Below, piece after piece: positions 24,148 through 28,251 of a stretch of 38,174 nucleotides of DNA. The DNA is from a virus (taxonomy: Duplodnaviria; Heunggongvirae; Uroviricota; Caudoviricetes): the IMG/VR virus record IMGVR_UViG_2531839455_000003; one strand, written 5' to 3'. The position numbers and the translations under genes are program-made. Within the stretch, counting starts at the first letter, position 1, and each line of letters begins with the position of its first letter. The notes below the pieces were generated by a model that was not told where the DNA came from, ran no database searches, and worked only from the letters and a program-made list of their open reading frames with translations.

Positions 24148-25193
24148 TGAGCAGAAAAAATAAAAAAGTGCGCATGAGTTCACGCATTGATCTCGCTGAT
24201 GCGCTCAGGAAAGAATCATCGCTCAGTGCATTCACATTTGATGGTCCTTATCGCCTGACCGGGCATGACCTGCTGGACAATATGTACTGTGCTGATAACG
24301 GGCGGTGGTATGAAACCCCGGTGGACTGGTACGGTCTGGCAAGAGCAGCCCGGCAAACGTCCTGGCATCAGTCTGCGCTTTACTTTAAGCGCAATGTATT
24401 ACTCGGTTGCTACATCCCGCACCCGCTGCTTTCCCGGCAGGATTTCTCGGCGCTGGCGCTGGACTGGTTTGTGTTCGGTAACGCATTCCTTGAGCTTCGA
24501 AGCAATATGCTCGGCGAACCGCTTAAATTACGGCACGCACTGGCGAAATACATGCGACGCGGAAGCGATCTTGAATCATGGTGGTATGTGCAGGATGGCA
24601 AGGACGCGTTCCAGTTTCGCCCTGGCAAAGTGTGCCACCTGATGAATCCGGACATTAACCAGGAAATTTACGGCATGCCGGAATATCTTGGCGCATTACT
24701 CTCGGCCAGCCTGTCTCATTCGGCGGACATGTTCAGAAAACTGTATTACGACAATGGATCCCACGCCGGGTGCATCATCTACATCGGTGCAGCGCAGGTG
24801 AACCGCGAAAGCATGGACTCCCTGAAAGAAACGTTACAGGGTGCGCGTGGTGGTGGTGCGTTTAAAAACGTGCTCATCCATGCGCCCAACGGGGGCAAAG
24901 AGGGGGTGCAAATTTTGCCGTTCCAGCAGATCACAGCAAAAGATGAGTTCATGAATGTTAAGGCGGCATCCCGTGATGATGTGCTGGCTGCGCACCGCGT
25001 TCCGCCGCAACTGATGGGGGCGATGCCGGGCGAAAAAAGTGCGTTTGGTGATGTGGAGAAGGCCGCGCGGGTTTACGCAATTAACGAGCTGATGCCCGTC
25101 ATGGAGGCCATGAAGCACATCAATGACTGGCTTGGCGAAGAGGTGATCCGCTTTAACCCTTACGCACTGTTAGACACCCAGCCCACATCCTGA
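24147..25193 (+). CDS. Q: portal (capsid portal vertex) protein gpQ
   Basis: 348 aa; overlapping stop/start with P (ATGA). Confidence 0.93.
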   Translation: MSRKNKKVRMSSRIDLADALRKESSLSAFTFDGPYRLTGHDLLDNMYCADNGRWYETPVDWYGLARAARQTSWHQSALYFKRNVLLGCYIPHPLLSRQDFSALALDWFVFGNAFLELRSNMLGEPLKLRHALAKYMRRGSDLESWWYVQDGKDAFQFRPGKVCHLMNPDINQEIYGMPEYLGALLSASLSHSADMFRKLYYDNGSHAGCIIYIGAAQVNRESMDSLKETLQGARGGGAFKNVLIHAPNGGKEGVQILPFQQITAKDEFMNVKAASRDDVLAAHRVPPQLMGAMPGEKSAFGDVEKAARVYAINELMPVMEAMKHINDWLGEEVIRFNPYALLDTQPTS

Positions 25194-25220
25194 CGCGCTT
25201 CGCTTGTCTGCTGCTTCGCC

Positions 25221-25243
25221 GGGGCATAAAAAATTTATGCCCC
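25221..25243. other. perfect inverted repeat GGGGCATAAA-AAA-TTTATGCCCC just after Q
   Basis: 10-bp arms; no T tract follows, so it is more likely a protein-binding or packaging-region element than an intrinsic terminator. Confidence 0.4.
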
Positions 25244-25617
25244 GACTCTCCAGCTCCTGTATCAGTCAGATAATTTCACGACGCTTTCCTGCTGATTGCC
25301 ATCATCGACAGTCAGACTCTTACGCAATCCCACCGCGTTGACTGCATGTTCTCGCCGTCTCAGTGCGATTTTGACGGCCTTACCTTTCACCCCATCAAAT
25401 CAAAAGCCCTCACGTCTTTTTCACGCTCAGCGTGAGAAATACAGCCATTCTGTTGTGTCGCTGCGACATCGTTCAGGGGATGCTATTTACCCCCTGAAAC
25501 GCGGGCTGTTCCCCCGTCACCTGCGCGCAGAAAAAATGCGTTTTTTTGTGCACGCACGGATCCTTGACGGATCCAGCCACCATGCGGGCCGGAAGGGCAA
25601 AAAGTCGTTCAAAAAAA

Positions 25618-25723: not shown

Positions 25724-27103
25724 ATGAAAAAAATCAATAAAGAAGATTCTAAAAGAACCTTTTTACGTGGATGGTTGCGATTTCTTCGTAGCGTTGAGAG
25801 AGCTAAGAAAAAAAAGCCTGCGCAAGAGAAAAATGGTAGTCTTCGTTTTTCCGATGAAACAACTCCTGTCCAAAACCAAGTCGCTACGTTCATTGAAAAT
25901 ATATCGATTATAAAAGAGTATGACTCATCAATTCTTCGTCGTGACGCAGAGAAGATATTAATACCTAAATATTTTGACTTATATGACAATCCAGAGAAAT
26001 CTCTGCTATTTATTAGTGCAGCCACAAAATTAATTGCAAGAGGTAAATGGAAATCATATATTTTTGATTACAAGAAAAACAAAAAACACTGTCTTGGTCT
26101 TGAGTGTCTATTAGGTGTTGCTCTTACAGCAGCAAGGCAAAGTAATATAAATTTCAAAGATACGATGATTCAGATTAATGGTATCTACCCTAAAGATGAA
26201 CAGTATCTTGAAATTATCAGGGATGTCGGGCTTGTAAAAGAGATTAGTAATGCTGCACCAGGTAAAGTTCTGGACTCTACTGAAGCATCGAAAAAAGCGA
26301 ATCCGAAGAAACGAATCTTCTCTGCTGATAGTATCGGAAAGGAGAATGCTTCTGCCTTTGCCCATGACAGAAAAAATGTCACTGCTGAAAAATTTACCGC
26401 ATACATAAACGAATGCTTAAATGATCATAATTTAAAACTTGTACATGAGGCAGAAAAGCATTTAACTTCCTGCATGGGGGAACTCCTTGATAATGCGGAG
26501 CGGCATTGTGGGTTAGAGCAACGCCCACGCTGGTATTTGAGAGGTTTTGTTAATAATAACGTACGAAACCCCATATGTGAGTTGGCTGTTTTCAATTTTG
26601 GGAAAACTATCAGCGAAACTTTTGATAATTTACCTGAGGATCATTTTTCATTAAGTCAACAAGTTAATCCATACATAAATAAGCATATTAAGAAAAAGGG
26701 TATGTTTAAGGAAGGATTAACAACAGTAGCGGCCTTGCAAGGGCGGGTGAGTTGTAAAAACGAGAAAGAAACTGACAGTTCTGGCACCGGAACAATTGAA
26801 TTATTGAAGTTATTTCAAGATATGCATGATAATCTTAAAAAAATGGGAAGAGATATTAAAGGTGGGATAAAAATGACTTTAATATCTGGTAGTACTCATA
26901 TTAACTTTGATGGATCATATAAATTAAAGCAAAGGTTGGTTAATGACGAGGAAAGTGACATTTTTACTTACCCTTTTAATGATGTAGGGCTTGAATCTGA
27001 ACCGGATCGCAACTATCTTAAGCGTATGAAGGATGCTCGATTTCCTGGAGTTATGATCAATATTCGTTTTCCTCTACCAGAAAACGCCACCCAGCGAACT
27101 TGA
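25724..27103 (+). CDS. cargo gene 1: predicted GHKL/Bergerat-fold ATPase-like protein (possible Ser/His-kinase-type), function unknown
   Basis: 459 aa from the first ATG; AT-rich. N-box-like motif GELLDNAERH (E-x3-N-A-x2-H), then a degenerate G1-like FNFGKT and a G2-like SSGTGTIELL glycine loop in the C-terminal half. Confidence 0.7.
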   Translation: MKKINKEDSKRTFLRGWLRFLRSVERAKKKKPAQEKNGSLRFSDETTPVQNQVATFIENISIIKEYDSSILRRDAEKILIPKYFDLYDNPEKSLLFISAATKLIARGKWKSYIFDYKKNKKHCLGLECLLGVALTAARQSNINFKDTMIQINGIYPKDEQYLEIIRDVGLVKEISNAAPGKVLDSTEASKKANPKKRIFSADSIGKENASAFAHDRKNVTAEKFTAYINECLNDHNLKLVHEAEKHLTSCMGELLDNAERHCGLEQRPRWYLRGFVNNNVRNPICELAVFNFGKTISETFDNLPEDHFSLSQQVNPYINKHIKKKGMFKEGLTTVAALQGRVSCKNEKETDSSGTGTIELLKLFQDMHDNLKKMGRDIKGGIKMTLISGSTHINFDGSYKLKQRLVNDEESDIFTYPFNDVGLESEPDRNYLKRMKDARFPGVMINIRFPLPENATQRT

Positions 27104-27113
27104 GGACAGGTAC

Positions 27114-27458
27114 ATGAAAATGGCTGACATCACCATAGATTTCAATAAGTTAGTAAAAGATAGTAACAAGAAACTTTTTGCTGGACGTTCTAATGGGCGC
27201 CAGGCCTATGATTACTTTAATATAGGGAAATTTTGCACAACCAGTAATGATAGATTATATCTATTGATCCCCAAGGGAATTGTTGTATCAAGCTCATACT
27301 TTCTAGGTATGCTTGAAACGGTTTTGCCGAAATTTTCTTCGCCTAGCGAATTTTATAGTCGCACTGTACTTGATGGTCGTGAATATAAAGAAGGTATGCT
27401 TTCTGAATTAGATAGAGCTGTAAGGAGAGGCTTACATAAAAATGTTCCCTTCTTTTAA
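27114..27458 (+). CDS. cargo gene 2: small cytoplasmic protein, possible STAS-like (anti-sigma-antagonist fold) partner
   Basis: 114 aa, 10 nt after the gene 1 stop (SD GGACAGG). Motif LYLLIPKGIVVSSSYFLGMLETV resembles the beta-strand plus DSSG serine loop of SpoIIAA/RsbV-type STAS domains; assigned by motif only. Confidence 0.6.
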   Translation: MKMADITIDFNKLVKDSNKKLFAGRSNGRQAYDYFNIGKFCTTSNDRLYLLIPKGIVVSSSYFLGMLETVLPKFSSPSEFYSRTVLDGREYKEGMLSELDRAVRRGLHKNVPFF

Positions 27459-28251
27459 AAATATTTTTCAAATCAAAATGACAGCGCTGTCTGTCATTTT
27501 TTTTATATTCCCCGCAGCTTGCTCTGTGACAGATTTTTCCAATAAAGAAAACATTGAATGTAATGAGTCACTTTATCCAAACACGCCTTTTTATATTTCC
27601 GATTCAGGACTTAGTGGTATATCATCACCGTTTTTGTTATCCGGAAACCCGAATGATGGCTTGATGTTTTGTGAAAAGGCAAACGACACCTTTCATAAGT
27701 TATCTCTGGCAAGGGATAACAAAAAAGATTTATTTGCTAATTATTTCAAAGATGTTCCAAATTCCTATGATATATATAATATTGTAAAGGTTCCGGAAAA
27801 TGGTCCAGAGTGGATTTCTATTGGCATCTCTTTATTTGCTTTAGTTTCATCCTTTGTTATTCCTTGTGTTCAACATAGAAAAGAACGTAAAGAAGCTATT
27901 AATGAAGGGTATTGGGTAAGAGAAGTAATTATGCCTAAAATTAATGGGTTGGCATTCGATGTTGTGCAAAGTTTTAAAAACTCCATGGCATTATCAGAAG
28001 AGGAGTTTCTTAGTGTATTCAGTAATACTCTTTTACCAAAACTAGGAGAGTTACGGGATTCATTATATTTGTTTAATAGTTTTCCAGAATTAAATGCAGA
28101 TATTGAAAATCTAGAAAGTATTTGTGACTCCTTGGAGGAAGAAGTTTCCAATCATATAGACTCGCCTAATGAAATAAGAATTTCTGATATATCAATGTTT
28201 CATTCCAAATTAATACAGAAATTAATTTTACTTCATAAGAAGATAGGTTGA
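27442..28251 (+). CDS. cargo gene 3: membrane protein (N-terminal signal/anchor plus internal TM helix), candidate effector
   Basis: 269 aa. Start overlaps the gene 2 end by 17 nt; SD AAGGAGAGG upstream. N-terminal hydrophobic segment MTALSVIFFIFPAAC, internal TM EWISIGISLFALVSSFVIPCV, acidic C-terminal domain. Confidence 0.65.
   Translation: MFPSFKNIFQIKMTALSVIFFIFPAACSVTDFSNKENIECNESLYPNTPFYISDSGLSGISSPFLLSGNPNDGLMFCEKANDTFHKLSLARDNKKDLFANYFKDVPNSYDIYNIVKVPENGPEWISIGISLFALVSSFVIPCVQHRKERKEAINEGYWVREVIMPKINGLAFDVVQSFKNSMALSEEEFLSVFSNTLLPKLGELRDSLYLFNSFPELNADIENLESICDSLEEEVSNHIDSPNEIRISDISMFHSKLIQKLILLHKKIG

Follow-up and report, generated by a model that had tools for sequence, protein, structure and literature searches.

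A membrane protein as candidate output of a prophage-borne kinase-STAS module

The window, that is, the whole 38,174-nucleotide stretch of DNA analysed here (IMG/VR virus record IMGVR_UViG_2531839455_000003), carries a three-gene cassette as cargo of an Escherichia coli P2-like prophage, located between gpQ (portal) and gpA. We propose, as a reading on which we stand evenly poised, that gene 3, the last gene of this cassette, encodes the regulated membrane output of a kinase-STAS module. The proposal is drawn by analogy: genes 1 and 2 resemble VapK and VapS of the VapKSC system and gene 3 holds the toxin position in every relative examined, which makes it the likely output. A preliminary description of this DNA had already pointed to gene 3 as the likely effector; the analogy and the constant third position support that claim. 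The cassette was catalogued previously (Rousset et al. 2022), and its new aspect is best classed as a putative membrane output of a kinase-STAS pair of the CapK/VapK kind.

A three-gene module with an architecture like that of VapKSC

The cassette consists of three genes in the same orientation, all of them labelled 'hypothetical' in the genome annotation:

25724..27103, + strand: gene 1, 459 residues; basic N-terminal helix, STAS-like domain, GHKL kinase domain
27114..27458, + strand: gene 2, 114 residues; small STAS-like (DUF4325-type) protein
27442..28251, + strand: gene 3, 269 residues plus stop; predicted bitopic inner-membrane protein

The best explanation for genes 1-3 is a single operon-like cargo module built like VapKSC. 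In that system, VapK (STAS + GHKL) phosphorylates Ser48 of VapS, a 116-residue STAS antitoxin with a C-terminal inhibitory helix, and thereby releases the PIN toxin VapC, with a protection of ~2 log against phage Bas42 (Chambers et al., EMBO J 2026, PMC13373217). We took the VapK and VapS sequences for comparison from the supplementary model file of that paper. Both modules are three-gene operons of the same order that neighbour other defence genes and occur on mobile elements. In both, the first protein joins a STAS domain to a GHKL kinase domain, and the second, of ~115 residues (114 in gene 2), has a Ser and a C-terminal tail that are conserved. On the other hand, gene 1 is 150 residues longer than VapK, with a basic N-terminal helix and insertions, and the third gene of the cassette encodes a single-pass membrane protein, whereas VapC is a cytoplasmic PIN nuclease. 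Because gene 3 has no PIN domain, we regard the cassette as a variant of VapKSC and not as a member.

The predicted fold of gene 1 combines a STAS-like domain (residues ~70-205) with a SpoIIAB/RsbW-like GHKL kinase domain (residues ~216-450), which is the STAS/GHKL combination of VapK. Gene 1 matches the profile phrog_3364 across its full STAS+GHKL length (2.9e-7), and VapK matches the same profile over its full length (3.6e-38). Residues E253, N257 and H261 of the N-box and the G2 box G354-x-G356 are invariant. From the modelled fold, gene 1 would act as a sensor serine kinase. Searches of PDB with sequence profiles returned no real matches for either gene 1 or gene 2.

Gene 2 contains the motif VVSSSYFLGML, in which Ser60 and Ser61 do not vary across 26 sequences and Ser59 hardly does, followed by a conserved C-terminal segment (E98..R101-A102..R105). 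Neither gene 2 nor its homologues matched Pfam with hmmscan; VapS itself is Pfam DUF4325 (E 2.7e-17), the family to which HHpred assigned the second protein of the catalogued cassette (Rousset et al. 2022). By analogy with VapS, we propose that gene 2 is both the substrate of the kinase, at Ser60 or Ser61, and the inhibitor of gene 3. A weak profile-profile alignment (E 0.13), lacking statistical support, pairs Ser61 of gene 2 (27294-27296) with the invariant Glu127 of the STAS-like domain of gene 1 (26102-26104). This hints that the in-cis STAS domain of gene 1 may hold a fixed acidic residue at the phospho-acceptor position.

CapK-CapS offers a second comparison. CapK (HTH-STAS-GHKL, where HTH stands for helix-turn-helix) is a DNA-damage-activated kinase and CapS a STAS-winged HTH repressor, and the pair sits upstream of CBASS, Bub and Thoeris operons (PMC13373217). 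The likeness lies in a STAS + GHKL kinase that phosphorylates a conserved Ser of its STAS partner, a pair that resembles SpoIIAB-SpoIIAA. However, CapK begins with an HTH domain and CapS uses its DNA-binding winged HTH to repress variable downstream operons, whereas gene 2 has no DNA-binding domain and the gene downstream of it always encodes the same membrane protein. The cassette also departs from SpoIIAB/SpoIIAA and RsbW/RsbV: a single polypeptide unites the STAS and kinase domains, genes for a sigma factor or a PP2C phosphatase are lacking, and the context is prophage cargo instead of a developmental or stress regulon.

Gene 3 encodes a membrane protein with a conserved helix and cytoplasmic bundle

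Within and around gene 3 we delimited the following features:

27422..27430, + strand: Shine-Dalgarno-like AAGGAGAGG, within the end of gene 2, 11-20 nt upstream of ATG 27442
27442..27458, + strand: gene 2/gene 3 overlap of 17 nt, from the gene 3 ATG (27442) to the gene 2 stop (27456-27458)
27442..27522, + strand: signal or lipoprotein-type peptide, residues 1-27; n-region with K6 and K12, core TALSVIFFIF, then PAAC with Cys27 last
27475..27508, + strand: terminator-like 10-bp hairpin, AAAATGACAG-CGCTGT-CTGTCATTTT plus a T-run, in gene 3 codons 12-22, covering the Met13 ATG
27523..27810, + strand: periplasmic segment, residues 28-123; poorly conserved, low-confidence model
27811..27873, + strand: transmembrane (TM) helix, residues ~124-144; small-residue stripe on one face (S126, S130, A133, S137, P141)
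27874..28248, + strand: cytoplasmic domain, residues 145-269; HRKERK, INEGYW-type motif, acidic four-helix bundle

The identification of gene 3 as a membrane protein, put forward in the preliminary description, was confirmed by two hydrophobic peaks, by a helix in the AlphaFold model and by the Phobius result published for the catalogued system ('signal peptide: protein 3; 1 TM in protein 3'; Rousset et al. 2022, Table S5B). Sequence and model together are best read as a signal peptide, a periplasmic segment, one TM helix and a cytoplasmic domain. The earlier account of two TM anchors holds for the second helix, and the first is better read as a cleavable signal or lipoprotein-type peptide. 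The segment reported for the second helix, EWISIGISLFALVSSFVIPCV, is likewise real, yet it maps to residues 123-143 (Kyte-Doolittle maximum 2.26; peak 122-145) and not to 140-160.

The open reading frame at 27442-28251 (+ strand) yields 269 residues, and the RefSeq annotation, as a hypothetical protein, is identical. Its N-terminal hydrophobic peak spans residues 8-33 (19-residue Kyte-Doolittle mean at least 1.6), in agreement with the signal or anchor first described, but the string then quoted, MTALSVIFFIFPAAC (MTALSV...), begins at Met13 and not at the start of the frame. We assign the start to ATG 27442 because the Shine-Dalgarno-like AAGGAGAGG precedes it, inspection of the sequence upstream of Met13 revealed no comparable motif, and Met1 is invariant in an alignment of 17 close homologues. 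As read from the sequence, the true N-terminus is MFPSFKNIFQIK-MTALSV...; two Lys precede the hydrophobic core, so that this start endows the protein with a proper positively charged n-region.

A Cys in this segment had been considered a possible non-canonical lipobox. The F-P-A-A-C of the window copy, with Pro at -3, fails both the strict pattern [LVI][ASTVI][GAS]C and the PROSITE-like rule, although Cys27 is nearly invariant within the close clade. Canonical-type boxes (LTAC, ITAC, ISAC, LTGC, LIGC etc.) occur in ~12 of the 43 gene 3 relatives; the others have a Cys-less signal or no signal. Lipidation of the copy in the window is possible.

We modelled gene 3 in AlphaFold with a 43-sequence alignment. 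Residues 1-120 were placed with low confidence and formed only a small beta-hairpin. A continuous helix then runs from 124 to 150, its start coinciding with the TM segment, and leads into an up-down four-helix bundle (153-181, 186-213, 215-237 and 243-268) with a predicted local distance difference test score of ~90. The C-terminal 100 residues, first described as acidic and soluble, lie in this confident helical bundle and are indeed acidic, with a net charge of -9 and an isoelectric point of 4.6. The periplasmic segment ends in a conserved juxtamembrane motif, N-x-V-K-V-P-E-S-G-P-E-W. On the cytoplasmic side, the TM helix is followed by a basic stop-transfer stretch, HRKERK, and by the conserved motif I-N-E-G-Y-W-x-R-E-V-x-x-P, with W158 and P165 present in 43/43 sequences.

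Conservation is distributed very unevenly along the protein. Pairwise identity averages 18% across the periplasmic segment, 48% across the juxtamembrane/TM region and 42% across the cytoplasmic domain, a pattern inverted with respect to a typical receptor. Within the TM helix (n=43), position 130 is S/A in 43 sequences, 133 is A in 42, 137 is S/T in 43, 126 is S/A/T in 39 and 141 is P in 35; plotted with a turn of 100 degrees per residue, the conserved small residues share one helical face. That the features described recur in all 43 aligned family members argues that they are not due to chance. Distant relatives of 166-192 residues have neither the signal peptide nor any of the periplasmic segment. 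One such ectodomain-less form, the 181-residue P0109, follows homologues of gene 1 (hhalign E 7e-51) and gene 2 (E 2e-22). Because these short relatives keep the three-gene module, the TM helix and the cytoplasmic bundle are, on sequence grounds, the functional core of gene 3.

Searches of Pfam, NCBIfam, PADLOC and PHROGs returned nothing meaningful for gene 3, neither an enzymatic nor a PIN domain, and sequence and fold comparison revealed no recognisable relative of known function. Foldseek gave a weak match of the gene 3 model to BFVD entry P51700, a 205-residue open reading frame product from the int-cI region of Haemophilus phage HP1, another P2-like phage, where it lies in an accessory region; at E 0.13 and probability 0.72 the match is below significance. 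Protein 3 of the catalogued system is two residues apart from gene 3 (Y109H, C142Y): the window carries Tyr109 and Cys142 (27766-27768 and 27865-27867), the representative of Rousset et al. His109 and Tyr142, and Tyr142 is the family consensus (I-P-Y-x-Q-H).

A conserved overlap and an internal hairpin at the gene 2/gene 3 junction

Gene 3 starts within the last 17 nt of gene 2, an overlap that was noted in the preliminary description and is conserved across loci. It is identical in the E. coli, Rahnella, Aeromonas and other Enterobacteriaceae loci (L002, L005, L006, L008), and more distant loci have overlaps of 14, 4 and 1 nt. Translational coupling of the two genes can reasonably be inferred from this arrangement.

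The hairpin within the first codons of gene 3 has a predicted free energy of -9.9 kcal/mol (z -3.7). Five distinct variants, from E. coli, other Enterobacteriaceae, Rahnella and Proteus, retain it; among them two base pairs show compensatory changes, and the loop sequence varies freely. Distant members of the gene 3 family lack the hairpin. As a hypothesis only, it could serve as an attenuator that holds gene 3 expression below that of gene 2, as would suit a dose-sensitive product. The hairpin may also be the reason for the unusual conservation of the signal-peptide residues KMTALSVIFF. Together, overlap and hairpin would keep the putative inhibitor, gene 2, in excess over a dose-sensitive gene 3 product.

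The cassette is patchily distributed, constant in order and recurrent among defence genes

The gene 3 family comprises 21 clusters at 90% identity among 5.8 billion proteins, and 35 representatives (E <= 0.001) were retrieved from 1.84 billion proteins. Its members come from Enterobacterales, Aeromonas, Vibrio and metagenomes. Of 5426 complete E. coli genomes, 32 contained relatives, as did two of 185,579 species representatives; searches of INPHARED phage genomes and PLSDB plasmids yielded no copy. The gene order is invariable: all 15 distinct loci encode a protein of ~450 residues, another of ~105-115 residues and the membrane protein in third place.

The surroundings vary. Copies occupy the P2 hotspot of E. 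coli, Enterobacteriaceae, Klebsiella and Rahnella, a chromosomal site of Aeromonas and an Aeromonas prophage. A copy in a Vibrio island adjoins type I restriction and AAA_15 genes, and copies in metagenomic islands adjoin type II/III restriction genes, toxin-antitoxin genes and integrases. Low-GC mobile cargo found repeatedly among defence genes speaks in favour of gene 3 as the output of an anti-phage module.

A hypothetical phospho-switch and the points against it

Were gene 3 the regulated output, the module could operate as follows. In the resting lysogen, the gene 2 protein would bind the cytoplasmic bundle of gene 3 and hold gene 3 inactive. On infection, the gene 1 kinase would phosphorylate gene 2, which would then let go, and the freed gene 3 molecules would associate through the conserved small-residue face of their TM helices. 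Their assembly would disturb the inner membrane, by ion leak or depolarisation, and stop the infected cell or the incoming phage. In its most specific version, which we advance only tentatively and hold doubtful, the phospho-switch would gate a single-helix, viroporin-like channel: unphosphorylated gene 2 would clamp the bundle, and its release would permit oligomerisation via the Ser/Ala stripe and subsequent depolarisation. Gene 3 resembles membrane effectors of abortive-infection systems, holins and viroporins in being a small membrane protein, last in a defence-type operon, with one TM helix, a polar/small stripe and a charged cytoplasmic tail; we found, however, no sequence or fold relationship between any of them and gene 3.

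If this scheme is true, the cassette would be the first known case of a membrane effector under the control of a partner-switching module, and the CapK/VapK sensor kinase would be a portable front end for nuclease, transcriptional or membrane outputs. The link to CapK and VapK already suggests a sensor module that is modular in its output: a repressor, a PIN nuclease and here a membrane protein. Confirmation would add a phosphorylation-gated membrane effector to the bacterial immunity repertoire. Gene 3 would then also be a minimal single-pass membrane protein, amenable to genetics, that a soluble STAS partner turns on or off. The CapK/VapK logic supplies a concrete, testable mechanism for a cassette that all genome annotations, and defence-finder libraries as well, have left as 'hypothetical'.

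Several observations weigh against this interpretation. The link to VapKSC is one of fold, common PHROG profile and architecture, and in sequence only the indirect connection via phrog_3364 reaches significance; hhalign comparisons of the family profile with VapK (E 0.086, colinear over 183 columns) and VapS (E 0.18) were not significant, the latter, non-significant alignment placing the phospho-Ser48 of VapS on Ser60 of gene 2. The G1 box of gene 1 (26594-26602, residues 291-293) reads F-N-F-G, with Asn at position 291 in 30/30 homologues where Asp is expected, and VapK carries V-D-F-G-V-G at the aligned position. Since this invariant Asn replaces the Asp that contacts adenine, gene 1 need not be an active kinase, and its nucleotide binding or specificity may differ from the GHKL norm. 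The aromatic residue with which CapK and VapK bind single-stranded DNA is not evident in gene 1 in a weak alignment, and for that reason the trigger of the cassette may differ from theirs.

As to the output itself, a single TM helix is a minimal effector, from which a pore or channel would require oligomerisation, and the hold of gene 2 on gene 3 is argued by analogy. No effector swap was seen in the gene 1 family, whose third gene belongs to the gene 3 family at all 15 loci examined; since this gene is never exchanged there, the family does not show the pattern by which an effector slot is usually recognised. Finally, our literature search, which did not cover Brenes & Laub 2025, found no defence or toxicity study of the cassette.

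Alternative roles for gene 3

The best-surviving alternative, which we nevertheless judge rather unlikely, casts gene 3 as a membrane anchor, scaffold or sensor that holds or activates the kinase-STAS pair, for instance by reporting envelope events at phage DNA entry, with genes 1 and 2 exerting the real effect by phosphorylating or sequestering some protein of the host or the phage. SpoIIAB-type kinases classically sequester a partner protein, and parallels exist in single-pass anti-sigma factors such as RseA and in the membrane sensors of Kiwa and Zorya. The receptor-like topology of gene 3, with its fast-evolving periplasmic segment and conserved cytoplasmic bundle, fits such a role, as do the lack of a catalytic domain, the conserved PESGPEW and the helix-destabilising Ser/Pro within the TM helix, which could suit regulated proteolysis. 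Nonetheless, the characterised relatives have the kinase as sensor and the third gene as toxin, the module encodes no alternative output, and neither the lipobox nor its Cys is universal. Moreover, relatives devoid of signal peptide and periplasmic segment stay in the three-gene module, so the ectodomain cannot be an essential sensor. We accordingly down-weighted the periplasmic segment as an essential phage sensor.

An improbable reading is that the module has no anti-phage function. It would then regulate the physiology of prophage or host through a kinase/STAS partner switch that includes a membrane partner, for example in stress signalling, in lysogenic conversion or as an addiction module by which the element is stabilised. 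Partner switches of STAS and GHKL proteins are classic regulators, no defence phenotype is reported in the literature searched, and no PADLOC model matches genes 1-3 (in PADLOC-DB v2, genes 1 and 2 gave no match and gene 3 a chance-level one, to PDC-S02 alone, E 0.031). About a quarter of P2 hotspot cargo is indeed of non-defence nature, for example partitioning genes and toxins (Rousset et al. 2022). Against this stand the repeated association with restriction, toxin-antitoxin and integrase genes in unrelated genomes, the patchy strain-level distribution, the low GC and the fact that VapKSC, the closest characterised architecture, is anti-phage.

Least probable of all is that gene 3 is a prophage superinfection-exclusion protein that blocks DNA injection or receptor use without killing, with genes 1 and 2 merely regulating it: small lipoproteins or proteins of the inner membrane are common among known exclusion proteins (Llp, Cor, Ltp, SieA, HK97 gp15), and gene 3 is a prophage-encoded envelope protein from a moron hotspot with a signal peptide or lipobox and a rapidly diverging periplasmic segment, yet its conservation lies in the TM helix and the cytoplasmic domain and not in the periplasmic part, ectodomain-less variants exist, the module also resides outside prophages in chromosomal islands beside restriction systems, and strict kinase-STAS linkage is not a feature of known exclusion proteins.

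Prophage setting and catalogue entry

The window is 100% identical to NZ_CP101210.1 across the region. The genes run from the capsid scaffold (- strand) through the large terminase (+ strand) and the portal (+ strand, end at 25193) to ~530 bp of conserved prophage sequence, the three + strand cassette genes and gpA, the replication endonuclease (- strand). The cassette genes have a G+C content of 33-39% versus 53-60% in the flanks. In P2-like phages, the portal-gpA interval is a hotspot for old/tin and many anti-phage systems (Rousset et al. 2022). The ~400 bp 3' of the portal (window 25200-25600) have prophage-like GC and are kept at 90-99% in ~1100 E. coli genomes, whereas the cassette itself is present in only 22; this stretch is the conserved hotspot flank and presumably corresponds to the cos-proximal region known from P2.

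Rousset et al. 2022 (Table S5B) catalogue the same three proteins as P2-hotspot system #19, 'HATPase_c | DUF4325'. Its 155 occurrences place it 19th in abundance among 169 catalogued E. coli P2 hotspot cargo systems, and it does not belong to those cloned and tested (Table S2 therein). We also considered, and rejected, identity with the validated 'hp + hp + hp' system (Rst_3HP, E. coli E1114, pFR109), which differs in protein lengths and sequences, the third proteins giving a BLASTP E of 0.69.

Three loci deserve separate mention. At L015 (5700-6340), the automatic call downstream of the gene 2 homologue gives only a 93-residue product, and the frame is open from an upstream Met (MAVRILLVIFSLSCAATV...), yielding a complete protein with signal peptide, TM helix and FWxR-type motif; the third gene is present but under-called. 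The 3.1-kb contig L017 (DEQA01000158.1), from the metagenome-assembled genome 'Planococcaceae bacterium UBA3378' and included in the two species-representative loci, encodes a gene 3 99% identical to the E. coli copy, and this Firmicutes assignment most likely reflects mis-binned or contaminating enterobacterial DNA. In the Rahnella P2-like prophage (L005, 512-3784), a gene for a 1090-residue KAP-family nucleoside triphosphatase lies between the portal gene and the cassette, so that this hotspot holds two cargo units.

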